This document shows positions 7,621-64,000 of a stretch of DNA of 64,000 nt, one piece after another. The notes beneath the pieces are model-generated. The model had not been told where the DNA came from, searched no databases, and saw only the letters and a list, made by a program, of their open reading frames with translations. The stretch comes from Cetorhinus maximus (Eukaryota): contig NC_135901.1 in NCBI RefSeq assembly GCF_964194155.1, positions 11,966,001-12,030,000 on the forward strand, given 5' to 3'. The stretch's first letter is position 1; each line of letters starts with the position of its first letter. A program made the translations under genes and the position numbers.

Positions 7621-8156
7621 ATAGGGAACCGTCTCGCTCCGCTCCTCATCGTAATGTCACTTCTCATTAAGTATTTCCTTCCCAGTAAAAAAAAAATCCC
7701 CTAATTAATGTCACACATATTATTGTTGGTACAATAACGGTGATGGTTTTGATTCCGATTATATTGATCAATATGAGGCTGACCCTGATTTTTGTTCATG
7801 CTATTGTTTTATATTAGAATGGAGCCACCAAGACACAATGGAACTGTTGCTGAAATAACGGTTGAAGGGGAAAGTAAGGCCACATTAGCCTGCACCTTGA
7901 AAACAAGCGATTCTATCCCTTATGTGTTGTGGTACAGTCAGAACCCCGGGCAGCCTCCACAGTACATGCTTCGTGTCCTGGGATGGAAACTATGCAGACA
8001 CACCGACATCACTAATCGCTTTTCAGCAACGTTCAATAAAACTGCCAAAATTGCAGAGCTAATGATCAGCAACACTTTAATCTCTGACAGTGCGATATAT
8101 TTCTGTGCCATGCAGCCCACACTGCAGCAGAGATATCGCGGATCCCGTAGAAACCC
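7621..8156 (+). pseudogene. TCR V pseudogene/ORF, family B (leader remnant 7621-7666, V exon 7818-8117, RSS 8118-8156)
   Basis: V domain ATLACTLK..VLWYSQNPGQPPQY..RFSATF..SDSAIYFCAMQ is open. Start codon is ATA, the canonical donor is mutated (TTAAGT), and FR1 has a 4-nt deletion relative to the paralog at 42.5 kb. RSS is CACACTG + 22/23 bp + degenerate nonamer. Confidence 0.82.
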
Positions 8157-21235: not shown

Positions 21236-23750
21236 CTACTGTGTTCGAAGGGAATTAGAGCGAGGATGTTTTAGGTGTTTTAACTGTTTAAAAGGACCAG
21301 TGACCGTGGTGAATGGATACATCAGCACCTTCTTCAGCTCCTCCCGGAACTTGCTCTGAGCCATCGCATAGATGAAGACGTTGTTGCAGGAACCAAGCAT
21401 GTTGGTTGTCTCCTGAAGGATGTACTGCGGGTCATTGAAATCCAGGCTGGTGATGTAGCCCTCGCCTGTGATCCGCAAGTAGAGGAAATGTGCGCGATAG
21501 ATGGCCCACAGGAGGAGGAAGCTGAGCGAGATGGCGAAAAGCAGGACAATGGACTTCTTACGATTGACCATCTCCGCGTCTCCACGACTCTCGGCGCACC
21601 GCAGCCTCCTGCGGGCTCTGCTGGCCGCTAAGATGTGTCTTACGGTCAGGGCGTTGAGCAGCAGAATGAGGAGATACGGGAGGAAATGAGTTAAGATGTG
21701 GTCTAGCCAGTCGTAGGGCTGCCAGATGGGCAATGTGCAGTAGGTGGACTTGAGGTCGCAGAACCAGGGCACCCCGTCCAGGATGTACAAAGGCTGGTAG
21801 GTGAAGTAGTATGGGATGTTCCTCAAGCAGCTCAGGCCTATAACAGCCCTATAACCAGCAACGCAGTTTTCTTGGTGCAGTATCTGGTTTTCAGGCTCTG
21901 ACAGCAGATGGCCAAAAAACGGTCAATGGTGAAGGCCACAGCTGGCCAGACTGAGCCATCCCGGGTGACAAAGACCAGCAGGTTGCTGAGTGCGCATGCG
22001 GGAGTGGTGGAGAGGACACTGTCCTGAAAGTAGATGCGGCCGATCCGGTTGAGGATGACGGCGGTGATGATGACCAGGAGATCGCTCACTGCTATCGCCA
22101 CCAGGTAGTAGCTGATGCACCGGGAGAGTCCGCACCGTCCTCGGGATAGGATTATGATCCCCAGCAAGTTGGCTGTAAGAGATCGGGAGAGAGAGATGTT
22201 ACTGAGCGGACTCCAAACAACAGCTACTGCCTCATTCAACCTCATCCCTCCTGATCCAACCCTCTGCCATTCCCAGACTCCAGCTGTTCCAAAGCCTTTG
22301 GTCAGTGTTCGGTATCCAATGCTGCATGAAACACTTGTCAATGCAGACGGCATTTCAATCGGTCCCCGCCACAAATTCTGCTCTCTGGCCACTGAGCCAA
22401 TCCCAAGGCCTCGCTGTCCAAATTAAGATCATCCGAAACATGTGCTTCCATTGGTCATAGTCAAAGCAATGCCCACCCTCCCATTAAGCCTATACTCATT
22501 GACATAGATTGGTTATCAGGCCGCAACGTCTCAGTTTTAATAATCTCCCCCTTCCAGTTTTGGAATCCCTCCGTTTCCTCGCCTCTCCCAATCCCTGTAC
22601 GACTACAACAATCTGAGATCTCAGTGTACGTCCTATTCTGCTCTCTCGTGTATCCCTTAAATTAACCTTTCCATTATTAACGGTTATGCCTGTAGCTGCT
22701 GAGGCTCTCGTCTCTTTAATCCCCTCTCTAAACTGCTCCCGTTCTCATTCCTTCTTTTGGACGTTCCTTATTTTCAAAATCTTTTATCACACTTTGGGTT
22801 AAATATCTCTTCCTGGTGTTCGGTATTAAATGTATTTGTTCAGGCTCCTGTAAAGCATCCCCACCATACGCGCTGCAGTGACTGAAGAAACAAGCGCAAC
22901 TCCACCTTTCAAGTGAGAAATAAAGATAAGCGATATACGTTGACCTTGTCAGTTACACCCACACCCCGCGGATGATTAAAATATATTATTATTCAAAATG
23001 TGCAAAACCAGTTAGCAAAAATCAAAAAAATAATAGATAAACAATTTCGAATCTCCACTAACATCATTCAATTGTTTCCATAATGAATTGCTTAGGCTAG
23101 ATTAGCAATCGGGATTGTCCGGTGAGAACTCGCTGTACTGTAACTATTATAATCTTTCACAGGTTGAAAAGTACATTAGTGCAATTACTAAACTTATTTT
23201 TATATTGCAATTCATCTAATATAATGATTTCACTGTAATTCGTTTTCTGATGCTGTAGTAAGATACGTGCACGAAAATATATGTTACTACACTGTGATAT
23301 GCTCTTATTCCGGACAACGCTTAAAACACTGGATTGTATTTGACTACCTTAAAATAAGTGTTCAACGATATAACAGGTTAACGTTCATGCAAAGCCACAC
23401 ATTACAATTCATACTTCAGCCATTCAATAAACGGTATTCCTATAAATCAATTGAATAGTACCTTGTAATGCTGCACAATGCAAGTACAAGTTATGCTCTA
23501 TAATTCACCATAACACAGTATAATCCCAGATAAGACATCGGAACCCGGTTGAGGCCCTTAACACTCTGACAGCACTGAATATTAGAGAAAAACATCATCC
23601 CAATCCTGAACGGGACGAGACAAACTTTCTGGGGATTTTCAACAAAATCATAAATAACATATTTGAGATCCATCACTTACCAGGGGCACCAATAACAGCG
23701 AGAATGGGATAGCAAATGGCAAAGAATAGGCCTTTCGCTGGCCTGTGCAT
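21236..23750 (-). pseudogene. Two-exon class A GPCR pseudogene, GPR139/GPR142-like (exon 1 23681-23750, exon 2 21236-22172)
   Basis: Exon 1 MHRPAKGLFFAICYPILAVIGAP with GTAAGT donor. Exon 2 ANLLGIIILSRG..YLVAIAVSDLL..AFTIDRFLAIC..LPYLLILLLN..FLLLW..NVFIY..KFREEL gives a 7TM pattern. Stop/frameshift at ~21836-21840. Confidence 0.85.
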
Positions 23751-31619: not shown

Positions 31620-34065
31620 ATGAGAGTCACTCTCATAGGCGACCAACCAGACACTATTTCTATTTCTTTGTCCATAACAAGCTTAAGATGTACCATGTTG
31701 TGGTCGCAATCACTAAAATGCTCCCCCACCACCACCTTAGGCACCTGTCCGGCTTCATTCCCTAGAATTAGGTCCAGCACTGCACCGTCCCTTGTAGGGT
31801 CCTCTACATATTGACCTAAAAAGCTCTCCTGTACACATTTCAAGAAATCCACTCCATCCAAGCCCTTAACACTATTTCTATCCCAATAAATGTGGGGAAG
31901 TTGAAATCACCTAATATAATTACTCTATTGTTATAGCTTTTACACACCTCCGCAAATTGCGCACATATTTGCTCCTCAATGTCCCGCTGACTATCTGGGG
32001 TCTATAATAAACACTTAACAATGTGGCTTCCCCTTCTTTATTCCTAAACTCTACCCAAAATGCTTCATTCAATGCCCCCCTCCAAGATATCATCTCTCCT
32101 TACTGCAGTAATTGACTCCTTAACTAATAATGCAATGCCTCCTCTTCTTTTACCCCCCTCCCCTGTCTCGCCCGAAGATTCTATATCCCGGAATGTTGAG
32201 CTTCCAATCCTGCCTCTCCCTCAGCCACGTCTCTGTGATGGCTACTATATCACAATTCCACGTGTCAATGCTCACCCTTAATTCATCCGTTTTACCTGTA
32301 ATACTCCTGGCATTAAAGTAGAGGTCATCCAGCCGTGCCTTACTCCCTTGAAGCTTAATGCAGTTGTTCTCCCTCTGACTTGATTGTTTTACTGTATTGT
32401 GATGCGTCCCTATTCTTCTAACATTGTGTGTCACCTCCCCCTGTCGAATTAGTTTAAACTCCTCCCAACAGCACTAGCAAACCCGCCCGCAAGGATGTTA
32501 GTTCATCTCTGGTTCAGATGTAGACCGTTCTGCGTGCACAGGCCCCATCTTCCCCAGAAACGTTCCCAGTGATCCAGGAATCTAAAACCCTCCCTCCTGC
32601 ACCAACTCTTTAGCCACGTATTCATCCGCGCTATTCTCCTATTTCTGAGCTCGCTCGCACGTGGCACTGGGAGTAATCCAGAGATTACAACTCGAGAGGT
32701 CTTGCTTTTTAGTCCACTGCCTAACTCCCTGAATTCTTGATGCAAGATATCATCGCTCTTTCTACCGATGTCATTGGTACCACCATGCACCATCGCCACT
32801 GCCTTATCCTCCTTCCCTTTCAGGATGCCCAACAGCCGCTCAGTGACATCTCGGACCCTGGCACTAGGGAGGCTACACACCATCCTGGAGTCACGTTAAA
32901 GGCTACAGTAGCACCTATCTGTTCCCCTGATGACAGAATCCCCTATTACTATTGCTCTTCCTCCCTTCCTCCCCTCTTGTACAGACAGGCTGCTTGTGGT
33001 ACCAGAAGCTTGGCTCTGTCTGCGCTCCCTGGAGGAACCAGCACCCTCATCAGCCTCCAAAATGGAATACCGATGTGCGAGCGGAAGCCCAGGGGACTCC
33101 TGAACTACCTGTCTGTTTCTCTTGGACTGCCTGGTGGTCACCCATTCCCTTCCTTCCTCGAGTCCCTTCAGCTGTGATGTGACCACCTCTGTAAACGTGC
33201 TATCCACGATGCTCTCAGACTCGCGGATGCTCCAGTGTCCCCAGCCGCCGTTTCAGCTCTGAAACCCGAGATTCCAGGAGCTGCAGCTGGATACAATTCC
33301 TGCACACATGCTGGTCCCAGGCACTGGAAATGTTCCCGGCTTCCCACATGAAGAACGAGGAGCACATCACGGCATTGAGCTCTCCTGCCATGTTATATCC
33401 CTTTAAATTAAACCTTTTAAATAAATTACTCTAGGGCACTTCTTTCCTGATCCTCGTTGCTACATAATATACAAACTACAAACCACAAAAAGACCCTAAA
33501 CTATAAGCGATAAAAATAGTAAATACTTACCCGACCTTACCCACTACTTACCAGCCATTACTTTCCCTTGTAGTCTGTACTGCTGCAGCAGGGTAAGGCC
33601 ACACTCTGAGGATTTAAGAAGTTGGATAGCAAAGATAAAATGCAAAGAGCACCTCTTCCCCTCTGCGCCAAATTCCCACTGTGCCAATACCCACACTCAC
33701 TCTGGCTGTGTCTCCCTCAGGATGAGGTCTCTTCCCTGCTCTTGTGCATGCACACTGTCGTGTGCTTCTAAATAGTCCCTTTCTTAATTAGAGCTGAAGT
33801 GAGCTGAAATGACTCACACTAGTTAAGCTTCAAATAGCAATCAATACCTATTAAATCCCTAATCAGGCATCAGGTGATTGACAGTTAACTGTAATACAGT
33901 CAGTTGACTCAGCTCCCTTACCAAACTTTTAACTAGACTACTGTGGTAACAAAAATTAAAGAGAAATGAAAGAGAAAGATTTACCAGTTCAATTCCCACT
34001 GTGCACCAAATTGCCAATACTCACACTCACTCTGGCTGTGTCTCACTCAGGCCGAGGTCTCTCAC
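31620..34065 (-). mobile_element. CR1-type LINE 5' half (5'UTR, ORF1 SGNH esterase-like domain, ORF2 AP-endonuclease), degraded and missing RT/3' end
   Basis: ORF1 motifs AIVIGDSVIRG, VHGGTNDIG and GLHLN. ORF2 motifs LYFNARSI..DIVAITETWL..IPGYRIFGRDR, QYVEDPTR..LDLIL and SDCDHNMV. Confidence 0.85.
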
Positions 34066-34091
34066 CTGTTTGTGTGCAACCACCATGTTCA

Positions 34092-34440
34092 GGTTTTTGG
34101 ACAGCTCTCTCCGTGCTCTGTATCACTGTGTGTCTGTAATCCCACCATGTTCAGGTTTTTGTACAGCTCTCTCCGTGCTCTGTATCACTGTGTGTCTGTA
34201 ATCCCACCATGTGCAGGTTTTTGCACAGCTCTCCCCGTGCTCTGTATCACTGTGTGTCTGTAATCCCACCATGTTCAGGTTTTTGTACAGCTCTCTCCGT
34301 GCTCTGTATCACTGTGTGTCTGTAATCCCACCATGTGCAGGTTTTTGTACAGCTCTCCCCGTGCTCTGTATCACTGTGTGTCTGTAATCCCACCATGTTC
34401 AGGTTTTTGTACGGCTCTCTGCGTGTTCTGTATCACTGTG
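34092..34440 (-). repeat. Tandem array of six 23-RSSs (62-bp unit) downstream of the supporting V-delta
   Basis: Heptamers (CACAGTG on minus) at 34124, 34186, 34248, 34310, 34372 and 34434. Each has a 23-bp spacer and a nonamer: ACAAAAACC in four units, GCAAAAACC and CCAAAAACC in one each. 23-bp linker TGAACATGGTGGGATTACAGACA. Confidence 0.95.
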
Positions 34441-34746
34441 CTGTGCGCCGACTCAGGTCACAGTAATACACAGCGGAGTCGCTCAGTTGTAGTTTGGAGA
34501 TATTTAACCAGCCGATTTTCTTGGCAGAATCGACAGAAGCAGAAATTCTCCCCCCAGCAACGTTTTCTTTATTCTCCTCTCCTGAAGTGTGTCTCTGAAG
34601 CAGATATTCCGGAGCCTGTCCTGGGGACTGACGGTACCAGTGTACTGTGTACTGACAGAACCCTGAATATTCACATCTTAAAGTAACGGTGTCACCGGCA
34701 GGAGAGGTGTGTAGAGGCGGATTCCGGGAAATTATGGAACTGGAAT
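34441..34746 (-). CDS. NAR-TCR supporting V-delta exon (leaderless, extra CDR1 Cys), intact
   Basis: Polypyrimidine + CAG acceptor at 34747-34748. Open frame (D)SSSIISRNPPLHTSPAGDTVTLRCEYSGFCQYTVHWYRQSPGQAPEYLLQRHTSGEENKENVAGGRISASVDSAKKIGWLNISKLQLSDSAVYYCDLSRRT. Phase matches the J donor at 37653-37658. Absent from the ORF track because it has no start codon. Confidence 0.9.
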
Positions 34747-37658
34747 CTGGAGGACAAAAAAAATGAACATTTTATTTTTGTTTAACCTCTGTTTGTCCAG
34801 GTAAATATGTCATCCACGTGAATAGCTCTGCTTTTTGAAGTAATTTTATTTGCTGGAAGCCTGTTTGAACCATGTTCACTCTTATGAAAATATGATCAAG
34901 TGGGGAATGAGGTGATATTTTAGTTTACATGGCGAACTCTTCCGATTAGGACTGCACTGTCTGAATCGGTGTTGGGAACAGATTCCATTGTAACTTTCAA
35001 ACGGGTAATGGATCTGTGCTGGAAATGTAAATACAAATATAGAACGTTGGAGAAAATTCATGGGCAGTGGGAAAAATTGGATTGCACTTTTAAAGGGTCA
35101 GCACCTACACGAGGGGCCGAATGTCATCATTCCGTGCTGGATAATTCTATGAATTATATTACATTCCCGTTTCTATTTTCCTTGGTGAGACACAAACCCG
35201 AGGGAGCATTTTATGTTCAGCGAGGCAACCAGTTTCCAAAAAAAAAAACATGTTTGTTGGAGAGAAACACAGCTGTGTGGCATCACTGCGCACAGCAAAA
35301 TCCAACACAAACTGATGGGAATCATCAGCACCGATTGGGCAAAACAGAGAGTGAGAACCAGTGGTCAAAGGTCAATCATTTACTGCGGTTTAAAACTACT
35401 CGGGAAATTCTCTCTGCCTTTTGCTGTATTTCTCCATGTTCTATCAATAGTGTCCTATTTTCTCCAGTTCAGCTTAATTTCAAATATGTACAATTAATTT
35501 CATCTTATTTCTCTAATTTCACGTTCCCTTTATTTCACATTTTCTTTGTGTTGTTTGTGCTTTCTGCAATCGTGGGAACTTGCCCCAAAGTCTCTCAGTT
35601 GTCGGTTGGGTTCAGTCTGTTCAATTTCCGCAGTGGTTTTACTGTTACTCACTGGGAACTGCCTCTTCTGGCTCTCTGACAATTTCAATTCTTTCCGCAC
35701 GTTAACTGATTCTATCCCGGGTTCACTGGGTGGAGTTTTCTCTTAATTTTACATTATAGAGGAAGAAGAATACAGAAGAGGAATGCGCCAGTCAGCCTGT
35801 GTATATCATCAATTCCAGCCGCACCCCACCAGAAATCTGATTGACCATTTACATCCAGCTCCCTGTGTTGGTCTGTTCCGTTCTCCCTCCTGTGTTTTCA
35901 AGTGTTTCAATAAATATATCAATGCCAACTCCAACCTCTCCCTGTGGCAGCAAGTTCCACATTCTGACCTGCCTTTGTTTAAATTCATTTGCCTTAAATG
36001 TTTTATTTGTTCTGTTAATGACTGTCATATGTTGACGGCTATTGCTTTGGACTCAGCCACAAATGAACAATTTATCCACATTAAAACCGTTCATTATTGT
36101 AAAACATTCTATGGATTCTCCTTGTGGTTCTTTTTTCCGGAAAAAAGAGACCCAGCCTGTTCAATCTTCCCAAGAGATGTGGATTGTTGCTGATTTCTTG
36201 TTTCATCAAAGTAGAGAATCGAATCAACAGAAGCAGGAGCCCCGATATCACCATTTAAACCCGTTCAGCCATTCAGTAATATCCTGGCTGATTTACAACT
36301 TCAACAACACATTCCCGCATTCTCCCCATATCCCCTGTTCCGTTTAGTGTCCGAAAACCTATCGAATATTGTCTTGAATGGACATAGATTATGAACATCC
36401 ACCGCTCTCTGAGTTACAGAATGCCACAGATTAACAACAATGGTTCTACAGAAGATATTTTTTCCTTCTCAGTTCTAATGGATGAAACTTTATTCTGAAG
36501 CTGTGACGCCGAGTTCTATACTCCTCAGTCTGGGGAAACTCCGAGCCAGAATCTGCCCTGTCAAAGCCCTTCAGAATATTATATGTTTTCATGAGTTCAC
36601 CTCTCATTCTTCTAAACTCGAGGAACTATAGACCGAGACGACTAAATCTCTTCCCATTGGACAATCACTCCATCTCAGGAATCAGTCTGATAAACCTTTG
36701 CTGCACTCCTTCCAATGCAGATTGATCTCTCTTCAGTAAGTAGGCCAAAACTTTACACAGAATTCCAGACTGGAGTCCATTTCAGTCTTTCACTCATAAA
36801 CCTCACGCATCCTGGGGTCAGAAATCATCCAATCCTTCTCTCCCTTTCGATTTTTTTTTTCTTGCTGGTTCTAAATGAGCATTCTCCTAGTTTATAATTG
36901 TTTCCTTATGTTTCTGTTCTCCTTCATAAGATTAATGCATCATCCTCACTCTCTCACTGCACTGTATTGCTTATTCCACAGTAATCAGGGATGCAGATAA
37001 ATTACAGCCATCCCATCTCTCAAACATGTACAGTCAATATGGAGAAGTGTCTGCAGTTCCAAACTTTCACATCTCGGTCTGAGGGCGGGAAAGGAGGAAA
37101 GTGACTGGTTGAAGACAATTGAAAGAAATGGGGAGGGGGGCAATGTCACTAATTTCAGTCACCGATTGTCCAATAATAAAATTCCATCTGGACCCACATC
37201 AGGATCTCTTATATCTGAAGTCCCTTGTGTCACTCGCCCGTTTCTCTCCCGGGTCAGGTATTGAACGAGCCGCTGCAGGTATCCGAACTGGCCGCAGTTG
37301 TGTTGAGTTTATTCACTCGGTTTCTGATTCACATAGCGCGGCTCGGACTGCAATCTGCTGCCCAGGAGAGAGCTCTGTGACCCCGCTCCCGGGCTCCAAG
37401 GGACAGACAGAGCTCCCTCGGTCACAGTTAACACCGGGAGTGGAGTCCGGATTGCCGACCATCTCCGCTCATTAAAAGCGATTCAGAGTGTGAGAGTCCG
37501 TGATGTTGAGGTTGTCTCCGATGTACCCGTTAAACCAATAATGGTCCAGATTCCGTCAACTCCCACAACCCACCCAAACTCCACTGATATCAATAATAAA
37601 CTGACGATGAACATTACCCGAGACAGTCTGTAACCCGGCGGGGTTTGGAGCTACTTAC

Positions 37659-37750
37659 CGGCTGTGACAGTCACCACCGTCCCGGACCCATCCGCATAAT
37701 CAGTGTACCACCACAGTGACTCCGCTCTGAGTCTCTCCGGCACAACAACC
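37659..37750 (-). CDS. NAR-TCR J segment (37659-37711) with 5' 23-RSS (37712-37750)
   Basis: Encodes WYTDYADGSGTVVTVTA followed by G|GTAAGT. RSS on the + strand: CACAGTG-23-ACAACAACC. Confidence 0.9.
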
Positions 37751-38065
37751 ACCGACACCTCAACCTGCCGGGAAATCATCATCAGACAGTAGAAACTGCC
37801 CAATTATTCAGCGGGTTTAAATAAATAAAAAATATTCAATGTTTCAAAGTCTCTGTCGGTTCAAATTGTTCTTTGTGAGGCCCTGAGCTCAGAGTAAATG
37901 GTTCCCGGAACGAGATGTTCGCATCATATAAGCCGATAAAAATATCAAAGAAAAATAACTGAATGGTGGAAATTACAATGAAATTTAACCAGATTCCAGC
38001 GACAATAACATGAGCCCGACAATTCATTATCTGGGCCCCGAGAATTTATATTGTGATCGGACAGA

Positions 38066-38136
38066 AGTATTTGCTCGGGTCTCTCCCACTGTGACTGTCC
38101 CAAAATAACACAGTGTTACAAGTCAGTATAAGATCC
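38066..38136 (-). CDS. NAR-TCR D segment (38094-38108, TTATTTTGGGACAGT) flanked by two 12-RSSs
   Basis: 3' RSS CACAGTG-12-GCAAATACT; 5' RSS CACAGTG-12-ATAAGATCC. D is open in all three frames (LFWDS/YFGT/ILGQ). Confidence 0.88.
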
Positions 38137-38461
38137 CCCGGGTACTTGGTGAGATGTGGGGACATTAGTTAAACAGAGGGAACTGCGGTTCCCGGTTCCA
38201 GCTTTAGACCGGGGTCACATCTGGTGTTAGGGGTTTGTAACTGTGATCAGTCATTCCCAATCCCCATTCACTGACATCAATCGCGGAATAGACATCACCA
38301 TCCGCACACACTCGGCATTTATAAATCTCAAGATGTTAACGGCAATAATCCAATCCCATTATAAACTACACTGTGGGGCAGCCCGTGTGAGGCGGATCTG
38401 TGAGGGTTTAACTGCAGATTCACTCGCATTTTCATTTGTTTCTGTGATAATCTGCAGTGAG

Positions 38462-38976
38462 AGTTTTTGTATCGCGAGAAGCCGAGGCCCATCACTGTGT
38501 GTTTTGTACTTGTACTGAGCTTTACAGTAATAGGTGGCCGTGTCTTCAACTCTCACATCCCGAATTTCCAGCGAAAATGTCTTTTCTGCTTTATTCACCG
38601 ACACAACAAATCTCCCCCCACTGGAGATCTGCTCCCGCTCTGTCCCGGTCTGGGTTTGTCTGAAGAAATCCCCGCCCGTCAAAGGACGAGCGAAAAAACC
38701 ACCATAGAAAACACAGTTGATGGTGAGAGACTGACACTCCTTCCTGGTCACCGCTGCCGGGGTCTGCACCACTGACTGACTGAAAGAGCCTGGAAATTAA
38801 ACAGAGAGAGTTTAATGGACTATCAGAGCCGAACCACAGAACGGGGTTAAAACTCCAGTTTCTGTAATTGGGATGGACTCGGGCAGCTTTATATTAAATC
38901 CACACAATGTCGGTTTGTTTGACGGGTACTCACAGGGTAAACAGACACACAGGGTGAAAACAAGGAGGATTCCCAT
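38462..38976 (-). CDS. NAR-TCR V (IgNAR-like V): leader 38934-38976, V exon 38500-38789, 22-bp-spacer RSS 38462-38499
   Basis: Leader MGILLVFTLCVCLP. Exon QSVVQTPAAVTRKECQSLTINCVF..FFRQTQTGTEREQISSGGRFVVSVNKAEKTFSLEIRDVRVEDTATYYCKAQYKYKT shows VNAR hallmarks (SLTINC, short CDR2 region, ISSGGR, YYCKA). RSS is CACAGTG-22-ACAAAAACT. Confidence 0.92.
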
Positions 38977-49699: not shown

Positions 49700-51400
49700 G
49701 AAACAAGCACTGTCTCAATCATTTCTGCACTGAACCCTTTCCAAGTTCATATTAAACTTGACCTTTGACTATATATATTACATTCAGTGACGTCTCTGAT
49801 CATATTACAACAGGTTGTGTCTCAGTTGTTTCTATAATAGGTCAATCTCAGTCAATATACAGGACAAAGACCATGTTACACTATACATTCTCTCAGTTAT
49901 CACTGCACTAAACCATGTCTTGGCTAATATGACAATAGTCCATGTCTCAGTTGTTACTGCACTGGTACTTGTCTCTACTTATACGAAACCAGAACATGTT
50001 CCTGTTTACATGACAGGAGGCTCTGTCTCAGTTATTGCACTACTGGACTCTGCCATATTTATACTAAACTAAGGGTTGTGTTGGCGAACGCTGCACCAGT
50101 CTATGTTTCTGTTTATATCACACGATGCCATGTCACTGTTATTATTGTATAATACCGTGCCTCTCTCTTATTGCTGCACTTGCCCACATCTCTGTTTATA
50201 TTAATCCAGGTCCTGTGTTGGTAGTTATTGCACTAGGCTCTGTCTCAGTTTATATTCGACAAGGTCCTATATCAGCTGAAACTGCAGCAGACCCCGTGTC
50301 AGTTTCCTTTCACTAGATCCTGCCTCAGTTATTACTGAACTAGACCATGTCGGTGTTCATATTACACAAGACACTGTCTCAATTATTACTGCACTCGGCA
50401 CAGCCTCACTGTTTACTCCACTACATCATGCCTCTGTTTATATTACCCTAGATCACCTTTTTGCTTATATTCTGTTAGATCCTATCTCAGTTTACATAAC
50501 ACTCGACCTGTCTCAGTTTATATTACATTAGACTCCGTCTCAGATAATATTACACTGGAGCCCGTCTCGGTTTATATTACACTAGAGCACGTCTGTGTTT
50601 ACATTACAATAGACCCTGTCTCAGTTTATATTACACTAGACCCTGTCTCAGTTTATATTACACTAGATCCTGTCTCAGTTTATATTACACTAGACCCTGT
50701 CTCAGTTTATATTACACTAGGCATTGCCTCTGTTTATATTAAAATAGGTCCTGTCATTGTTATTTCTGTGTAGGCCATGTCTCTATTTATACTACACAAG
50801 GCCAAGTCTGCTATTACTGCACTAAATCCTGGCTCAATAATTGCTGATACTAGGCCCAGCCTTCGTTTGTATTACTGTGTATGCTGTATCAATAATTGGT
50901 GCACTCGGCCCTGCCTCAGCATTACTGCACCAGACCCTGACTTTGTTTCTACTGAAATAGATTATGTCTATGATAATATTACACCAGTTCCTGCCTCAGT
51001 TATTTCAGTGCTCGGCCTCGCCTCAGCTGCTCCTGAATTCGGCCGTGGCTTTGTTTGTATTACATGCGGTAAGTCTCAGTTATTACTGCTCTGGGCCCAG
51101 CGCCTGTATATACAACGCTAAACCCTGTCTTAGTTGCTGCTGCACTAATCCAGACATCTCCTTTTATTACACTCGCCCTGTCCCTGTTTTTATTCCACTA
51201 GATCATGTTTTTGTTTATCTTACACTTTAGGCAATCTGAGATATTATTGCACAAGACCCTTTCTACGGCGTTATTAATCCATGTGCCGAATCAATCATTA
51301 TTGTTCGAGCCCCGAGAGAGGATTAATATCAATTGACCCAATACTTAGTGCGCTAACCCTGCCTAGTTATTTCTACGCTGGGCCATGTCTCTGTGATTAC
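49700..51400. repeat. 27-bp minisatellite (TAGACCCTGTCTCAGTTTATATTACAC) with degenerate flanking copies
   Basis: Near-perfect tandem copies at ~50560-50720. Degenerate tracts at ~28350-29260, 39900-40320, 52570-52900, 61600-62030 and 63300-64000. Confidence 0.8.
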
Positions 51401-54400
51401 TGCAACTGTGAGTTGGAGAGATAATATTATACACAAAGATGTTGAGGTGGGATTTGTTCCCTGGCGTTGCCCTAAAACGGGCGGTATTGGAGGACCCGTT
51501 CTTTGAAGCACCTGATAGTTATTTTCATTTAGTTTTAGTCAAAGAAGTTATAGATCAGATCTGGTCAGTTATGTGTGCCGTATAGAAAAAAAAAACATGC
51601 TTCTTGCTTATACCGCCGTTTCTCAAAGATAAATGATGATCTTTACCTGAGCGTTTCAATATTTAATTTTCTTTTACTCAAACTGTCACTGCGGATTATT
51701 TAGTGCTGTAAACATTTATTGATAGCATGTTTCGTTGTGTACTTTTGCTTAGAAAGTGATGTCATACTGACACTTCCGTCACTAAGACCAGCATGTTTAT
51801 CACCAAACTCATTGAATGTCCCTTCTTTCTCTATCTGAGGCAGCGTCTTACTCACTGAACCTCTTCTCTCTCTCTCTCTCAATCTTTCTTTCTCTCTCTC
51901 TCACGCTCTCTCTCCACCCACCATCTAACTCCCGCCCCCACACCCCCGCTCTCTCTCTCTCTCTGAGACAGTCCCTTATTCATTTTGAATCTCTTGTTGT
52001 CTAATAACACTCTTTGGAGATTTTTTTCCGCAAGTTCTCTTCATTCCTCCCAGTGACAACTTTCAGTCCATTCCAGCCTTCAGTGATTGTGTTCAAATCC
52101 AAAACTATGCATTTATTTAAATTGTAGATTGTTTAATACTGTAAGTATTTATTGATAACCAGTCTGTTGTGAGCATTTGTTTATAAAGTGATGTCAGACT
52201 GACGATTTCGTTTCTAAGGTGCTTTATCTGTCTCCGGTGATCAGTTGGAAAGCGGAGTAAATCACATCCAGAATAACCTGCAGTTTATTAACAAATGATC
52301 ACCTCAATATCTCACAGAAGCTCCTGATAATCTCGAATGTGTGATGATTTGTGCAAGTGATGGCAAATATCAAACTTTTTCTACACCTGACATGAGACTA
52401 ATACACCTGTAATTCTCCGATTTATTATTCCTGTTGATGGGAAGGATTGAAACTCCTGCTGCTCTCCAGAGACTTTCACTATTTCTATTTCCACTTTTTT
52501 AACTGTTATCTTCACAAATTCCACCACAACCGCTCGAATCATGTTTGGAGGGATTGGTGTAACTGCAGGTTGTATATTCAATGTAATCTTAACGAAAATA
52601 AACTAGGGCCTAGTCGAGTATAAACGGAGACCGAACTTGGTGTAACATAAGCAGAGATATGGGTTACTGCATTAATAACAGAGACAGTATCTGGTTTAAT
52701 ATAAAAGGAGATATCAGCTAATGAAGTAATAACAGAGACAAGGCCTGGTGTTATATAACCAGGGATATGGGCCCGTGCAGTAATATCAGAGACAGGACTT
52801 GGTGTAATATAAACATATGTATCGGCTAGTGCAAGTAATAACAGGCACAATACCTAGTGTAGTACAGACAGAGGCATGTGCTAGTGCGGTGATAACACAA
52901 ATTGGCCCAAGGAGTCAAATAAACAGAGAAATTGGCGAGTTCAGGAATAAGAGAGAGGGAGGACTTGGTATAACATTGAATGAACCGATATTTGTATGAT
53001 CATAATAACAAAAACACTTTGTATAAAATAACAACTGAAAGAGGTCATGGCGAAACACTAGAAGAAACAGGGTCAACGTTAACAATATCAGAATCAGGTT
53101 ACTATTGAAAACTGATCGGCACAAGGTTTTCAGAAATAAAGAGAGAGGTTTGCATTAGAATTTGAATGATATGTAGGCTCTTCGTGCAACCATTACAGAG
53201 ACAGCGTTTTTTACAATGAGATTGAATATAGGGAACAGATTAAAAACGGTAAAGCTCTGTGTAATTAGTGCAATGTTTGATGATCACAGAGGATAGCAGG
53301 TTGCAGTGCATCACTGAATACATCACTGGGTCCAATGTGATAACGACACGGTCAGCACCTGATCCACCCAAATCGAAGTTGGGTCTGATATAATAGTGTG
53401 TGTGAGGCAGCGCCAATTGATACAGTAGCAAGTCTTTTGCATAATGCCCAATAACAGAGTCAAGCACCACTGAAATATATGAATGGGATGGAGTTGGTGC
53501 AATAACAATGACACAGTCTAGTGTAATGGCTAATAAAACATAACATTCTGGAATGACTCTGCAGGTCAGGCAGAATCTGTGGCGATAAACAGAGTGAACG
53601 TTTCATGGTGATGACCCTTCAGCAGAACCGGGGTAATCGATTAGAAACTTTAACTCTGCTTCTCTCCACAGCCACTGCACTCCCGAGTGGTACAGTTGGT
53701 GGTCCTCCTGCTTTTGAGCTGTAAGATCCGTGTTCAAATTCCTCTCCCGGCTCCGTTCACCACGGGAAGAGTGTTCGTATGACAGAACGCCGGTTTTTAA
53801 TTAGCCTCCAAAATCCTCCCGCCTCTCCACACTTTCCCCAAGGCTGCAAAAAATATGACGATCCGGAAAACATAAAGGCTCGACACCTGCTGTCTGACCT
53901 GTTGAGGATTTCCAGCACATTCGGTATTTATTTCAGATTTCTAGCATCTGTCATATGTTGCCGTTGTACTAATGCAATGGGAACTGGGGATACATCATGT
54001 CAGCATTGACGAATTAGCGTCACTTTTACCCCTGGGTCAAACGGTTGTGGGTTGAAGCCTCAATCCAGAGAGTTGACCATTTAATAACGCCCAGTGCTCA
54101 CGGTGAGAGTTTATATGTCAGCCTTTCTGTTCTCTTATCCATTATTTTCTTACACTCAGGAGGAGGAATTAAAGACAGAGAAACTCTGGACAGTTTCTCC
54201 ATCCAGCAAAGGACGTGTTCCTGGGACATTGTTGCTGCTTTCACCTTCCCGCCCTCTCCAAAAATACAAACAACATCTCCCTCCTTGGATTTGCAAAGGG
54301 AATTCTGACTGCCGGGCCCGGGCCAGACTGGGGCCTGGTCCAATAATATTCACAGAGGCCGGCTCCGGTGTGTCAATAACAGAGGCTGCTGGTAATCTTA

Positions 54401-55097
54401 CATAAAGAGAGGCAGGGGTTCTAATAAACATCTGACTGTTATAGGATGTGAAAGTGCGAGGAAGCAATGATGTTTAGGGCCTTAGCGCAGGCTTCTGTGT
54501 TATAGTGAGTGACCCAGGGATTTGTGTGGTAAAAACGGAGCGGAAACATCATGACAGAGGCCCGTGTGACTGACTCCACCTGACTGAGAGCTGTTATACC
54601 CAAGGGGAAGACAATCATGGCGGACTCCAGAGATTACTGATATCTGCAGGGTCAATGCTGCATCTCTCAGAGGAACAGAAAATAATCTGCTCCCTCTCAT
54701 TCTTACCGACAGTTCTCCATTTACACAGACACGCAAGGGCCGGACCCGGCAGCTTGTCGAAACCAATGTTTAAATCTTCAGCTTGAGGCACATGATGACT
54801 GAAAGGATTGAACACAAAAACCTCACCAGAGGAACAATTCAGAGCCGTAAATGTTAAAGATAATCGTGCTTTCTCCTAAACGAGCTCTATTCAGTGTTAT
54901 TATTTTGTTCAAAGTAGTCGTTTGTAAACAGTAGTGAACTTCTGAATGATTCCTGACAATTATCGACACACACACACTCAAGTACTGTCAAAAGACAGGA
55001 TTAGCAGAAGACGAAAGCTGTGTAATTATTGCATTTTATTTGGGCTCAATGAGGGACAGAGGTGGTTATAGGAAAGGTGCTGGGACAATGAGATGAC
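50690..55097 (+). repeat. Left arm of large inverted duplication
   Basis: Reverse complement of ~59430-64000. Mirrored ORFs include 53779-54009(+) / 60513-60743(-), 54045-54308(+) / 60214-60477(-) and 54500-54766(-) / 59756-60022(+). Confidence 0.9.
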
Positions 55098-55469
55098 NNN
55101 NNNNNNNNNNNNNNNNNNNNNNNNNNNNNNNNNNNNNNNNNNNNNNNNNNNNNNNNNNNNNNNNNNNNNNNNNNNNNNNNNNNNNNNNNNNNNNNNNNNN
55201 NNNNNNNNNNNNNNNNNNNNNNNNNNNNNNNNNNNNNNNNNNNNNNNNNNNNNNNNNNNNNNNNNNNNNNNNNNNNNNNNNNNNNNNNNNNNNNNNNNNN
55301 NNNNNNNNNNNNNNNNNNNNNNNNNNNNNNNNNNNNNNNNNNNNNNNNNNNNNNNNNNNNNNNNNNNNNNNNNNNNNNNNNNNNNNNNNNNNNNNNNNNN
55401 NNNNNNNNNNNNNNNNNNNNNNNNNNNNNNNNNNNNNNNNNNNNNNNNNNNNNNNNNNNNNNNNNNNNN
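55098..55469. other. Assembly gap (372 N); other gaps at 14264-14527, 15750-15885, 20623-20755, 57799-57998
   Basis: Runs of N. Confidence 0.99.
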
Positions 55470-55720
55470 CTGTATCACTGTGTATCTGGTATCCCCACTT
55501 TGTTCAGGTTTTTGTACAGCTCTCTCCGCGCTCTGTATCACTATGTGTCTGTAATCCCTCCATGTTCAGGTTTTTGTACAGCTCTCTCCGCGCTCTGTAC
55601 CACTATGTGTCTGTAATCCCACCATGTTCAGTTTTTTGTACAGCTCTCTCCGCGCTCTGTATCACTGTGTGTCTGTAATCCCACCATGTTCAAGTTTCTG
55701 TACAGCTCTCTCCGTGATCT
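55470..55720 (-). repeat. Second tandem 23-RSS array (same 62-bp unit), at least 4-5 units, abutting an N gap
   Basis: Plus-strand heptamers at 55476 (CACTGTG), 55539 and 55601 (CACTATG) and 55663 (CACTGTG). Nonamers at 55507, 55569, 55631 and 55693. Confidence 0.9.
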
Positions 55721-55808
55721 AACCCTGAACATTCACAGCTTCAAGTAGTGGTGTCACCGACAGCAGAGGTGTGTAGAGGTGGGCACCAAGACACCAGGGA
55801 ACTGGAAT
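55721..55808 (-). pseudogene. Truncated supporting V-delta of second NAR-TCR cassette
   Basis: (D)SSSLVSWCPPLHTSAVGDTTT*SCECSG is homologous to ~34660-34746. The rest of the V and the proximal heptamer are deleted. Confidence 0.85.
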
Positions 55809-57229: not shown

Positions 57230-57301
57230 CGGCTGTGACAGTCACCACCATCCCGGAACCATCTACAAAATTAGCAGACCACTCTCACAGGTACAAGAAC
57301 C
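57230..57301 (-). pseudogene. NAR-TCR J pseudogene
   Basis: ANFVDGSGMVVTVTA; donor GT>GA; heptamer deleted; nonamer ACAAGAACC retained. Confidence 0.85.
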
Positions 57302-57609: not shown

Positions 57610-57670
57610 GATATTTGCCCTGCTCTCTCCCACTGTGACTGCCTATGTTACAAGTTAGTATAAAATACCC
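57610..57670 (-). pseudogene. NAR-TCR D remnant
   Basis: Homologous to 38066-38136. The 3' 12-RSS is retained (heptamer 57631-57637); half of the D and the 5' heptamer are deleted. Confidence 0.8.
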
Positions 57671-59429
57671 GCGGGTACTTGGTGAGATGTGGGGACATTA
57701 GTTAAACAGCGGGGACTGCGGTTCCCGGTTCCAGCTGTTAGAACAGGATCCCATCTGGTGTTAGGGGTTTGTAACTGGGATCAGTCATTACCAATCCCNN
57801 NNNNNNNNNNNNNNNNNNNNNNNNNNNNNNNNNNNNNNNNNNNNNNNNNNNNNNNNNNNNNNNNNNNNNNNNNNNNNNNNNNNNNNNNNNNNNNNNNNNN
57901 NNNNNNNNNNNNNNNNNNNNNNNNNNNNNNNNNNNNNNNNNNNNNNNNNNNNNNNNNNNNNNNNNNNNNNNNNNNNNNNNNNNNNNNNNNNNNNNNNNGT
58001 CAAGGAAAATACATCTTTCAAATGACTCACTGAACTTCTTCCCTCTCTTCCTCTGTCTCAGACTACACCTAAATCAGTTAACCTATCTTCCCTCTCTCAG
58101 ACTTCACTTATCTCACTTACACAGACTCACAAGGGCCGCATCTGGCAGCTACGAGGAACCAATGTTTAAATCTTTCGCTTAAAGCACATTATCACTGAAA
58201 AGATTAAGCGCCAAAACTTCATCAGAGCAAAATTCAGTGCCATAAAGACACAGCTCACTCACTTAACCTCTCTCCTCTCTTTCTCTCAGGCAGCACCAAA
58301 CCCTCTTAAAACTTTCCATTTCAGAATAACCGCCTGTGAACAGTATTATTGTTTTAATTTCCCCTCTTTTCTCCCAGTGATAACCTTCAATCCATCTCGC
58401 CTTCAGTTAAAATGTTAGAACCAAAACAATCTCATTTATTTAATTCTTTAAAATGAAAATGGAGGTGAATGTAATGCTGAGGCCGGCAGCACTCTGTGTG
58501 GTTGTTCTTGATGCTGTCAGAGTGAGTTCACCCTCACAGGCAGGAAGACTGTTCACGGTGATAACATGAAACTGACGCCTGTTGTTTCATTCTCAGGTAA
58601 CACAACTTCCTGTTTCTCTGCTGCCGGTTCCAAACCGCACATCTCACTTCTGAGCAGAAAATAAATCCAGGGGCCACAATCTGGTGAGAACATCTGTCAA
58701 GGCGGCCTATATCTGGCCACAGAGTCAGGGCAGAGTCACACAGATCACATTGCGGTGACATTTACAAATGAGCCTGTGTGATCCGTTTCGAGCTTCCATT
58801 TCCAGGACATAACTGGATGGTCAGTCACTGAGCTCCCTCGAGTCCCTGAAGCGGGGAAATGAGATCTTGCTCCCTTTCATTTTTCGTTGTCATACTCCAC
58901 CACCCGCCCCCACTCTAACTCCCCCTGCACACCCCACCAACACCGCATCCCACCACCACCCTCCCGCCACCCGCCACGCGCACACACTCCCTGAACATAC
59001 ACTTTCCCTCCAAACTTGTTTCCTCTGTTTCTCTGCAACATTCCGTCTCCCTTTTTTCATTTTAAGTCTCCTTCCCTTAGTTTTATCTCTGTCTATCTCT
59101 CTGTGTATCTCTGTCCACCTCTCTGTGTGTCTATTAAATAGAAGCGTTCAAAATCATGAAAGTTTTGATAGTGTGAATAAAGACAGACTATTTCAATTGG
59201 TAGGAGGGTCGGTAACCAGGGGACGCAAATTTACTTTATTGAACAGGAAGACAGGAGGATAATTGCTTATTTTTTTTAACACGGCCAGTTGTTCTGAACT
59301 GGAATGCGCAGCTTGAAAGGGCGATGGAATCATACCAATAGTAACTTTGTAAAATGAATTCTATAAATACTTAAAGGGGTTAAAATTTGAAGGATGACAG
59401 GGAATAGGGTCAATTGAAATGCTCATCTA

Positions 59430-62400
59430 TATCATTGTCCCAGCACCTTTCCTGTATCTACCTCTGTCCCTCATCGAGCCCAAATAAAATGCAATAATTA
59501 CACAGCTTTCGCCTTCTGCTAATCCTGTCTTTTGACAGCGCTTGAGTGTGTGTGTGTCGATAATTGCCAGGAATCATTCGGAAGTTCACTACTGTTTACA
59601 AACCACTACGTTGAACAAAATAATAACACTGAATAGAGCTCGTTTAGTAGAAAGCACGATTATCTTTAACATTTTCGGCTCTGATTTTTCCTCTGGTGAG
59701 GTTTTGGTGTTCAATCCTTTCAGTCATCATGTGCCTCAAGCTGAAGATTTAAACATTGGTTTCGACAAGCTGCCGGGTCCGGCCCTTGCGTGTCTGTGTA
59801 AATGGAGAACTGTCGGTAAGAATGAGAGGGAGCAGATTATTTTCTGTTCCTCTGACAGATGCAGCATTGACCCTGCAGATATCAGAAATCTCTGGAGTCC
59901 GCCATGATTGTCCTCCCCTTGGGTATAACAGCTCTCAGTCAGGCGGAGTCAGTCACACGGGCCTCTGTCATGATGTTTCCGCTCCGTTTTTACCACACAA
60001 ATCCCTGGGTCACTCAGCATAACACAGAAGCCTGCGCTAAGGCCCTAAACATCATTGCTTCCTCACACTTTCACACCCTATAACAGTCAGATGTTTATTA
60101 GAACCCCTGCCTCTCTTTATGTAAGATTACCAGCAGCCTCTGTTATTGATACACTGCAGCCGGCCTCTGTGGTTATTATTGGACCAGGCCCCAGTCTGGC
60201 CCGGGCCCGGCAGTCAGAACTCCCTTTGCAAATCCAAGGAGGGAGATGTTGTTTGTATTTTTGGTGAGGGCGAGAAGGTCAAAGCAGCAACAATGTCCCA
60301 GGAACCTGTCCTTTGCTGGATGGAGAAACTGTCCAGAGTTACTCTGTCTTTAATTCCTCCTCCTGAGTGTAAGAAAATAATGGATAAAAGAACAGAAAGG
60401 CTAACATATAAACTATCACCGTGAGCACTGGCCGTTAATAAATGGTCAACTCTCTGGATTGAGGCTTCAATCCACAACCGTTTGACCCAGGGGTAAGAGT
60501 GACGCTAATTCGTCAATGCTGACATGATGTATCCCCAGTTCCCATTGCATTAGTACAACGGCAACATATGACAGATGCTAGAAATCTAAAACAAAATCCG
60601 AATGTGCTGGAAATCCTCAACAGGTCAGACAGCAGGTGTCGAGTCTGTTTGTTTTCCGGATCGTCATATTCTTTGCAGCCTTGGGGAAAGTGTGGAGAGG
60701 CGGGAGGATTTTGGAGGCTAATTAAAAACCGGCGTTCTGTCACACGAACACTCTTCCCGTGGTCAACGGAGCCGGGGGTGGAACCTGAACACAGATCTTA
60801 CAGCTCAAAAGCAGGAGGACCACCAACTGTACCACTCGGGAGTGCAGTGGCTGTGGAAAGAAGCAGAGTTAAAGTTTCCAATCGATGAATCCGGTTCTGC
60901 TGAAGGGTCATCGCCATGAAACGTTCACTCTGTTTATCACCACAGATTCTGCCTGACCTGCAGAGTCATTCCAGAATGTTATGTTTTATTTGCTATTACA
61001 CTAGACTGTGTCAGTGTTATTACACCACTCCATGCCATTCATATTGCAGTAGTGCTTGACTCTGTTATTGAGCATTAGGCAAAAGATTTGCTACTGTATC
61101 AATTAGCGCTGCCTCACACACACTATTATATCAGACCCAACTTCGATTTGGGTGGATCAGGTGCTGACTGTGTCGTTATCACACTGGATCCAGTGAGTAT
61201 TCATTGACGCAGTGCAACCTGCCATCCCCTGTTATCATCAAACATTGCATTTGTTACACACAACTTCCCTGTTTTTAATCTGTTCCCTGTGTCCAATCTC
61301 ATTGTATAAAACGCTGTCTCTGTAATGGCTGCACTAAGAACCGACCTGCTATTGAAATTCACATGCAAACCTCACTCTTTATTTCTCAAAACCTTGTGCC
61401 TATCACTTTTCAATAGGAACCTGTTTCTGATATTGTTAACGTTGACCCTGCTTCTGTTAGTGATCCACGATGACCTCTTTCATTTGTTGTTTAATGCAAA
61501 GCATTTTTGCAATTATGCTTACATAAAAACCTGTTTACTCGAATGTTATACCAGGTCCTCTCTCTCTCTTATTCCTGAACTAGCCCATTTCTCTGTTTAT
61601 GTTACTCCCAGGGAAAGTTCGTGTTATCACTGTACTAGCACATGTCTCTGTCTGTATTAGACCAGATATTGTACCTGTTATTACTGCACCAGCCGATTTC
61701 TCTGATAATATTTGACCAGGCCCTGTCTCTCCAAATTACTAAACTACTCCATATCTCTGTTTCTATTACACCAGGTCCTGTTACCGTTATTACTGCACCA
61801 GCCTATAATTCCATTTATATTACACCAAGCCTGTCTCGATTATTACTGCACTAGCCCATATAATTGGTTACATTACATCAGGCCCTGTCTCTGTCATTAC
61901 CTCATTAGCCAATATCTCTTTTTATATTGCACGAGCTCTCATCTTTGTTATTCTGCACTGGTCCATATCTTTGCCTATATTACACCAGGTCCGCTCTCTG
62001 CTTATGCTACACTTGATCCTGGTTTATTTTGGTTAAGATCACATTGAATATATAACACACAGACAGACCAATCAGGCAAAAATGATTCGAGTGGTTGCGG
62101 AGGAATTTGTGAAGATAACGATAAAAACAGTGGAAGCAGAAATATTGGAATTTCTCTGGAGAGCAGCAGGAGTTCCAATTCTTCTCATCAGCAGGAATAA
62201 TAAGCCGGAGAATTACAGGTGTATTTATCTCATGTCAGGTATAGATAATGTTTTATTTTTGCCAACATTTGAAGAAACAACCTCACATTCGATATATATC
62301 AGGAAATTCTGTGAGATGCTGAGTGGTCATGTGTTCATAAGCTGCTCGTTATTCTCGATGTGATTTAATTCACTTTCCAACTGACCATCGGAGACAGATA

Positions 62401-64000
62401 AACCTACCTCAGAAACTAAATAGTCAGTCTGACATCATTTTATCAACAAATGCACACAACAGAATACTTATCAATAAATTGTTACATCGTTAAACAATCT
62501 GCAACTTAAATAAATGCGTAGTTTTGCATTTGAACACAATCACTGAAGGCGGGAATGGACTGAAGGTTGTCACTGAGAGAAATGAAGGGAAATTACTGAA
62601 AAAAATGGATTTTCTCCTCAGAGTGTTATTAGATAACAGCAGATTCGAAATGAGTAAGAGACTGTCTCAGAGAGAGAGAGAGATAGAGGGACAGAGGGAG
62701 AGAGAGGGAGAGAGAGAGAGAGACAGAGAGAGAGCGGGGGAGAGAGACAGAGAGAGAGAGAGGGGCGGGGGCGGGGGGTGGGTGGAGAGAGACAGAGACA
62801 GAGAGAGAGAGAAGAGGTTCAGTGAGTTAGACGCTGCCTCAGACAGAGAGAGAAGAGACCTTCAGTGAGTTTGATGATGGACGTGATCGTCTTAGTAACG
62901 ACACAGTCAGTATGACATCACTTCCTAAACAAAAGTGCACAATGAAACATGTTATCAATAAACATTTACAGTACTAAATCATCCGTAGTTATATTTTGAG
63001 TGAAAGAAAATTAAATATTGAAACATTCTGGTGAAGATCATCGTTAATCTTTGAGAAACGACGGTATAAGCAAGAGGCATGTTTTTTTTTGCATACAACA
63101 CACATAACAGGCGACACCTGACATACAATTTCGCTGACTGAAACTAAATGAAAATAACTGTCAAGTGCTGCAAAGAATGGGCCATCAAATACCGCCCGTT
63201 TTAGGCCAACTCCGGAGAAAAATTCCCACGTCAACATCTTTGTTTGTAATATTACCCCTCCAACTCACAGAGACATAGAGAACTGCAGTAATAACAGAGA
63301 CATGGTCTAGTGTAGAAATAACTGAGGCAGGGTTAGCGCAGAAATTACTGAATAAGTACCTGGCTTAATATCAATTGATATTAATCTACTCTCGGGGCTA
63401 GGACAGTAATTATTGATCCGGCGCATAGATTAATAAACTCCTAGAGAGGACCTGGTGCAGTAATAACTGAGATTGCCTCTCGTGTAAGATAAATAAAAAC
63501 ATGATCTATTGGAATAAAAACAGAGACAGGGTGTGTGTAATATAACATGTATGAACTCGTGCAGCAACAACTAAGACAGGCTTGACTGTTGTATATACAA
63601 ACACTAGGTCCAGAGACTTTGCCGCAGGTAATGCAACCAGAGACACGGCCGAAATCGGAAGAGCTGAGACGAGGCCGAGCACTGAAATAACTGCGGCAGG
63701 AACTGGTGTAATATTATCATAGACATAATCCATTTCAATATAAACAAAGTCAGGGTCTGGTGCAGTAATACTGAGACAGGGCTGATTGCTCCAATTATTG
63801 ATACAGCACCGACAGCAATATAAACCGAGACTGGGTCTTGTCTCAGAGATTGCTGAGCCAGGATTTAGTGCATTAACAACAGACTTGGCCTTGTGTAATA
63901 TAAACAGGGACATGGTCTGCACAGCAATAACAAAGACAGGATCTATTCTAATAGAAACTGAGACAATGTCTAGTGTAATATAAACTGAGGCAGGGTCTAG
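59430..64000 (-). repeat. Right arm of large inverted duplication (runs off window end)
   Basis: Begins near TCATTGTCCCAGCACCTTTCC, the reverse complement of ~55070-55090, and stays collinear to the window end. Confidence 0.9.

Follow-up and report, generated by a model that had tools for sequence, protein, structure and literature searches.

The window analysed here, a 64,000-bp stretch of the Cetorhinus maximus genome, is a portion of the cartilaginous-fish TCR alpha/delta V region. It contains a complete NAR-TCR cassette on the minus strand (cassette A), made up of a leader, an IgNAR-like V, a D, a J, and a leaderless V-delta. The NAR V was placed at about 38500-38792, within 38462..38976, with one 22/23-RSS, and its leader exon at 38934-38976 from the DNA reading. 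In a search of solved structures, the top matches to this V were VNARs (E=8e-20), and its translation contains KECQ, with the a-b loop cysteine, and DFFRQ, without the WYRK tryptophan. The NAR D (38094-38108; 38066..38136 with its RSSs) has a 12-RSS on both sides, while the NAR J (37659-37711) has a 23-RSS at 37712-37750 and a phase-1 splice donor whose frame matches the supporting V. The RSSs of the cassette, 22/23 at the V, 12/12 at the D, and 23 at the J, are 12/23-compatible. The supporting V-delta (34441..34746) is intact, carries a CDR1 cysteine (FCQY), and is preceded by a splice acceptor at 34747 in a phase that fits the NAR J donor; it was called leaderless because of this arrangement, in which the acceptor is spliced in frame to the NAR J. 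Among named homologues, those of Cetorhinus (up to 92%) and Carcharodon (up to 86%) match it best, and the second V of P0046, a two-V chain, is 69% identical to it. A leader-bearing NAR V that has the a-b loop cysteine but not the WYRK tryptophan, and a leaderless supporting V-delta, are the features given for NAR-TCR in the available text of PMC1845163. By its sequence, cassette A is a NAR-TCR cassette whose doubly rearranged delta chain is a predicted product; D-delta, J-delta, and C-delta lie beyond the window.

Elsewhere in the window, conventional TCR V segments and pseudogenes lie in both orientations, at 228, 3799, and 30877 on the minus strand and at 8119, 11720, about 9440, and 13900 on the plus strand. 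The three minus-strand segments have one RSS each, with a variant heptamer in which position 5 is C. An intact 828-aa open-reading frame at 17263-19749 on the plus strand was taken by eye to be retroelement-like, with a reverse transcriptase and a GIY-YIG endonuclease, and frameshifted reading frames at 21236-22422 on the minus strand, among the V genes, look by eye like a GPCR pseudogene.

V segments are expected to have one RSS. Behind the supporting V-delta of cassette A, six 23-RSSs follow one another on the minus strand with a 62-bp period (34080..34440), each unit of this ladder consisting of a heptamer, a 23-bp spacer, a nonamer, and a 23-bp linker, arranged head-to-tail. Tandem Repeats Finder, run on the whole window, returned only two arrays of a 62-bp unit, at 34080-34440 (array A, 5.8 copies) and at 55470-55714 (array B, 3.9 copies, score 397), with the same consensus, and the 23-nt linker motif occurred eight times (five in A and three in B) against an expectation of 0 in 100 shuffles. 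This bears out the observation in the initial annotation that the same unit and linker lie behind a second supporting V. A standard 23-RSS has a consensus heptamer, a 23-bp spacer, and a consensus nonamer; the ladder units match this canonical form, and RAG cleavage at them is predicted. In array A, all six heptamers are consensus and four of the six nonamers are exact, with one change each in A4 and A6. Consensus heptamers are expected to be cleavable, which applies to all five distal heptamers of this array. Higher-order repetition, with a period of 124 bp, links A2 with A4 and A3 with A5. Within the window, a ladder follows both supporting Vs and none of the five other Vs with a recognisable RSS, in which the best match to a second RSS had at least 5 mismatches of 16, compared to 0 for the supporting Vs.

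All ladder RSSs are on the minus strand and no plus-strand RSS was found inside the two arrays; with no opposed RSS, the linker was ruled out as a D gene segment. An origin of the ladder as an assembly artefact was also ruled out, by its presence in other species. Homology among the units begins at the heptamer border, and the linker weakly resembles the 3′ end of a V (12 matches; 710 of 20000 shuffles). The best explanation for the origin of the ladder is a tandem duplication of a 23-RSS with about 23 bp of adjoining sequence. At its distal end, array A includes just 12 bp of a linker before it meets a repeated element (33600-34079), which has very high contig depth and a second copy near 33680-33760, and the array may have been truncated there by an insertion. 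In the frame of the supporting V of cassette A, heptamer 1 and the first spacer base form a stop (CAG TGA), so joins at a distal RSS would be non-productive in this cassette. This stop ruled out a lengthening of CDR3 by use of distal RSSs in the window.

The second array belongs to cassette B, a 2.3-kb piece between two N runs within an inverted duplication, in which D, J, intron, and supporting V are in the same order as in cassette A, in BLAST segments of 72-81% identity. Its ladder (55470..55720, minus strand) has five visible units, one more than first annotated: a partial B0 (55670-55720) that has lost its heptamer, B1 (55608-55669) with an intact heptamer, B2 (55546-55607) and B3 (55483-55545) with the same C3>T heptamer change, and the first 13 bp of B4 at the gap edge, with its heptamer intact. 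Two of the four visible heptamers (B1 and B4) are exact. The two mutated heptamers of array B and the six perfect ones of array A were both as described in the initial annotation, but the two mutations probably represent one event, since the heptamer change common to B2 and B3 and a spacer change common to B1-B3 indicate that B1-B3 expanded within B. The two degraded nonamers that had also been pointed out in B have two mismatches and one mismatch, respectively, and the single mismatches of A4 and A6 had been omitted from that comparison.

The supporting V-delta of cassette B is dead, as first described, with only its 5′ 88 bp left (55721..55808, minus strand) and an in-frame stop. The deletion removed at least 229 bp, comprising 218 bp of V, the heptamer, and the start of the spacer, and its junction was absent from the 15 contig joints listed, beyond which there are 90 further joints. 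The NAR J (57230..57282, minus strand) has a 20-bp deletion from the RSS heptamer to the coding border, and its splice donor has changed from GT to GA, while the NAR D (57610..57668, minus strand) has a deletion of about 11 bp over the 5′ heptamer/D border, with the 3′ heptamer intact. An N run of 200 bp (57799..57998) lies at the expected start of the NAR V, and no NAR V was found beyond this gap within the window. As a member of the NAR-TCR family, cassette B is dead on several counts, and its ladder is decaying. Its deletions end at (J, 57283-57300) or span (D 5′, 57638-57650; supporting V, 55720/55721) RAG cut sites, with a post hoc p of about 0.004 for the two small ones, and could be germline open-and-shut RAG scars or could reflect selection against RSSs in a dead cassette.

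The N run that flanks array B (55098..55469) is 372 bp long, which had been noted as exactly six 62-bp units. The length is correct, and its agreement with the unit is probably coincidence: the chance is 1/62, it was noticed post hoc, and the left edge of the gap lies in an arm of the inverted duplication and not in an in-phase array, so the length was rejected as a unit count. The other four of the five gaps in the window have lengths that are not multiples of 62. Since the right edge falls inside a ladder unit, further units are expected in the gap, which probably hides them together with the junction to the duplication arm. The left arm of this inverted segmental duplication (50690..55094) has its partner at 59429-64000 and encloses cassette B with it; identity is 84% overall and 96% over 1344 bp. 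Identity between the arms climbs toward the centre, and a third partial copy lies at 58114-58246.

Compared to the A consensus, B1, B2, and B3 differ at 2, 4, and 7 of 62 sites, whereas the aligned flanks of A and B differ at 340 of 1831 sites (18.6%; p=3e-4, 0.006, and 0.09 for the three units, which are not independent). Spread of the array by conversion, one of the possibilities raised in the initial annotation, is on these figures probably also true. Among contigs from three related organisms, 5, 6, 18, and 12 have one RSS1 spacer variant in common, across many paralogous cassettes. We judge the ladder units to be older than the split between A and B and to have been kept alike by conversion or constraint, two processes that are not separable here. 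The proposed check for excess conservation of the motifs in the functional array was run and gave none: two of seven independent changes in array A fall in a heptamer or nonamer, motifs that together account for 26% of sites (p=0.74; the power is low).

The distribution of the ladder was followed in a set of homologous gene models, in which 71 of 78 matches were kept as chondrichthyan or without an organism name, and six bony-vertebrate matches and one distant unnamed match were dropped. Automated models of unrearranged cassettes continue until a stop, so the tails of such models translate the DNA behind the V. By eye, 27 of the 71 models have a terminal Q placed eight residues beyond the V cysteine position, which is what CAG-TGA at heptamer 1 would give. 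A further 15, chosen by their RSS1 match, read through RSS1, and 11 of these reach the position of a second unit while four end earlier; such models are visible only where the frame is open, an ascertainment bias, and paralogues from one genus do not count as independent. Because frameshifts left an ungapped test for a second RSS underpowered, a frameshift-aware alignment against the window ladder was adopted, with 500 shuffles of each tail. Ten of the 11 informative tails aligned with the ladder past RSS1 better than shuffles (0-1 of 500): P0022, P0026, P0033, and P0051 from Hemiscyllium, P0048 and P0064 from Rhincodon, P0056 from Stegostoma, P0035 from Pristiophorus, P0062 from Pristis, and P0050. 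The eleventh, P0031, was matched by 110 of 500 shuffles, its tail being too short. None of 15 control tails, spliced or rearranged, beat the shuffles (lowest 27 of 500). Carpet sharks, a sawshark, and a sawfish, and with them Galeomorphii, Squalomorphii, and Batoidea, are represented among the positive tails, the batoid evidence being one model, P0062, flagged as low quality by NCBI. The holocephalan models P0001 and P0003 were uninformative on the ladder. In P0010 (Carcharodon) and P0011 (Heterodontus), two NAR V-J units precede one supporting V; these are possibly three-V cassettes, or annotation merges.

At the DNA level, cassette A (33950-38850) was compared with contigs of four of the 24 runs listed, from three organisms. 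One contig of run X5, from a related shark, contains a joint at which one unit and a further 4 bp are missing; at least 50 letters flank the joint on either side, and the depth is 380. This contig therefore contains two head-to-tail RSSs with a 19-bp linker, 4 bp shorter than in the window. The second linker is also covered by contigs of X1 and X9, at a distance of 73 and 76 letters from the contig ends, from which we infer that these organisms also have ladders. The summed contig depth in the array bin was about that of the V in all four runs, although such depth is not a copy number. Since the ladder is found in Galeomorphii, Squalomorphii, and Batoidea, it predates the split between sharks and rays, dated to at least 200 Myr in the accessible part of PMC2193156. 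We read the ladder behind the NAR-TCR supporting V-delta as ancestral in elasmobranchs, older than that split. The models from Hemiscyllium, Rhincodon, Stegostoma, Pristiophorus, and Pristis, five genera, together with the X5 contig, also uphold the original suggestions that the array recurs in this type of cassette and that it predates the cassette duplication.

Other contigs of these runs contain joints within the NAR part of the cassette. In X5 (at least five joints, depth 12-357) and X9, the NAR V is joined to a D-like stretch (38093-38108 to 38504-38514) with the D 3′ heptamer kept, and contigs of X3, X1, and X9 have a V-to-J joint (37686 to 38513). It looks as if relatives carry germline-joined NAR-TCR VD, and possibly VDJ, genes. 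The ladder itself might likewise derive from RAG in germ cells, through re-insertion of signal ends, and have no somatic role. RAG transposition is expected to leave head-to-head signal joints or target-site duplications, however, and the ladder units are head-to-tail with neither; the linker is possibly a diverged V end, and re-insertion would account for the origin of the ladder but not for its persistence. Despite the unit homology that begins at the heptamer border, the cassette B deletions at or across cut sites, the multicopy depth of the V-D joints in relatives, and the germline RAG activity documented for sharks in the available text of PMC2193156, all of which would fit such an origin, we regard it as highly improbable.

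Across these species, the ladder shows gain, loss, and homogenisation of units, with a period of about 58-63 bp and from 2 to at least 6 units. In carpet-shark cassettes with an open V, the second heptamer reads Q (the P0022 family, P0048, and P0056) or Y (P0064) and not H (CAC), and several distal spacers are frameshifted, while some third units look intact. Dead second heptamers beside open Vs indicate that decay is not confined to pseudogenes and, together with the motif changes in array A, leave unsupported the earlier proposal that the array is maintained only where the V is functional. This pattern is also what a near-neutral minisatellite might produce, if unequal crossing-over and conversion among dozens of cassettes refreshed the copies from a selected RSS1 and the distal units were useless, tolerated or slowly disabled. 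The variable period and unit number, the recent lineage-specific expansions (A2/A4 with A3/A5, and B1-B3), the dead distal heptamers beside open Vs, the lack of excess motif conservation in array A, and the many paralogous cassettes in all three contig organisms are consistent with such a process, and the weak likeness of the linker to a V 3′ end fits ordinary duplication. Collapse to one unit would, however, be an absorbing state, yet a ladder is present in 10 of 11 informative tails; the ladder is confined to supporting Vs, and five cleavable decoys per V are presumably unlikely to be cost-free. We consider neutral turnover possible, if somewhat unlikely, and a close rival of the capture model described below.

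In P0050, a ladder of five units is open throughout; its heptamer and nonamer residues are intact, its 61-bp period takes it through all three frames, and W stands at the three positions that are stops in the window unit. When its tail was searched with phmmer against 1.84 billion representatives, two proteins were found, P0050 itself and Rhincodon P0064 (E=2e-4 between the tails), and a word-index search found only itself. In open-frame ladders of this kind, distal joins might lengthen the stretch from the supporting V to D-J by about 20 residues for each unit, and so provide new length for a loop or stalk. Such a coding role would suit P0050, open over five units with intact-looking signals, and the several carpet-shark tails that are open for 2-3 units, but in the window a TGA blocks it, as is probably the case for at least 27 of 71 models, the read-through models were ascertained by being open, and two rearranged-looking chains, P0046 and P0052, contain no ladder sequence. 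As the general explanation of the ladder, we find it very unlikely.

Our tentative preference, at somewhat less than even confidence, is that the extra RSSs raise the capture by RAG of a promoterless supporting V, with RSS1 making the final join. Because its leader is missing, the supporting V presumably lacks its own promoter and would be a weak competitor for RAG at the D-delta/J-delta centre, with the spacer arrangement of D-delta and J-delta presumably as in other vertebrates. Several 23-RSSs in the same direction would multiply the targets for RAG. A cut at a distal RSS would join the linker to D-delta, giving a stop-containing intermediate that parks the cassette at D/J with RSS1 still intact, and a second join, of RSS1 to a remaining downstream 12-RSS, would then yield a productive chain. 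A unit whose heptamer is dead could serve only for docking, through its nonamer. That P0046 and P0052 join at the V end is consistent with this capture model, and RAG is able to occupy neighbouring RSSs simultaneously, although in a different geometry, according to the available text of PMC4315296 and PMC6509286. Against capture, the non-CAC second heptamers in carpet sharks indicate that cleavable distal sites are not universally kept, array A has no excess of motif conservation, and distal joins use up D segments without any possible gain in the proportion of final joins that are in frame. A selected RSS1 could also refresh neutral copies by conversion, and cartilaginous-fish genomes evolve slowly, as stated in the accessible portion of PMC12227049.

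The same stop-containing joins could instead be the purpose of the distal RSSs, which, as decoys akin to delta-Rec or the kappa-deleting element, would absorb the first rearrangements and thereby limit the output of the expanded NAR-TCR family or hold back the join of the supporting V until a NAR VDJ exists. Attenuation of this kind agrees with the stop in frame at heptamer 1, which 27 of 71 models match, with the position of the distal units closest to D/J, and with the multicopy nature of the family. RSS1 outlives any distal join, however, so that such a join is not a dead end while a downstream 12-RSS remains, and distal heptamers are disabled in several functional cassettes, while P0050 lacks the stop; attenuation is, in our estimate, decidedly unlikely. 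Returning to capture by distal RSSs, its fullest form, in which the ladder is a selected device predating the shark-ray split that works in two steps, capture by a distal RSS and then commitment by RSS1, and in which open-frame lineages also obtain receptors lengthened in steps of about 20 residues, is doubtful.

RSSs beside non-coding DNA are known from delta-Rec/psi-J-alpha and the kappa-deleting element, where joins are non-productive, but those elements are single and free-standing, whereas the ladder RSSs are in tandem and belong to a functional V that keeps its own RSS. In VH replacement, a cryptic RSS at the V 3′ end permits a second event. The ladder is similar in offering more than one usable RSS per V (its use being predicted) and different in that its full consensus RSSs lie downstream of the V, while the cryptic site lies inside the V and serves to replace it. 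Successive TCR-alpha rearrangement, or receptor editing over many J-alpha, likewise involves same-direction RSSs and sequential joins on one allele, but in the available text of PMC5931798 each RSS has its own coding segment, whereas in the ladder one V owns all RSSs and the first alone gives protein in most cassettes. Mammalian TCR-mu, of convergent origin, resembles NAR-TCR in being a three-domain TCR whose supporting V departs from ordinary rearrangement, being germline-joined in marsupials and D-less in platypus, and no RSS ladder is mentioned for it in the accessible part of PMC3457774. The NAR-TCR cassette of cartilaginous fishes (Criscitiello 2006, via PMC1845163, PMC3457774, PMC12227049, and PMC5931798, each in the text available) has the same IgNAR-like V, D and J of its own, and leaderless V-delta with a CDR1 cysteine; a ladder of 23-RSS units behind the supporting V, as in the window, is not mentioned there.

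A ladder behind the supporting V is likewise unmentioned in the accessible portions of PMC12227049, PMC1845163, PMC6795676, PMC3457774, PMC9248892, PMC4315296, PMC2193156, PMC5931798, PMC3964593 (including one supplement file), and PMC6509286. Tandem RSSs at a shark V were not described among the literature matches listed, a search outside which lie the primary NAR-TCR locus papers and some supplements, where a prior mention is possible. The RSS ladder is a real and ancient, and probably undescribed, variant of the known NAR-TCR cassette.

NAR-TCR needs two coordinated rearrangements on one allele, one of them with a leaderless supporting V, and how that V is selected is not addressed in the NAR-TCR literature covered here, as far as its available text goes. 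A conserved RSS ladder specific to supporting Vs is a concrete candidate answer. Its units, live or dead, open-frame or stop-containing, also form a natural series on the choice of RAG among adjacent signals. If the ladder is neutral, it is an annotation trap and an unusually long-lived minisatellite of RAG targets; if the two-step reading is true, a V gene that carries several RSSs would add a new layer of V(D)J control.
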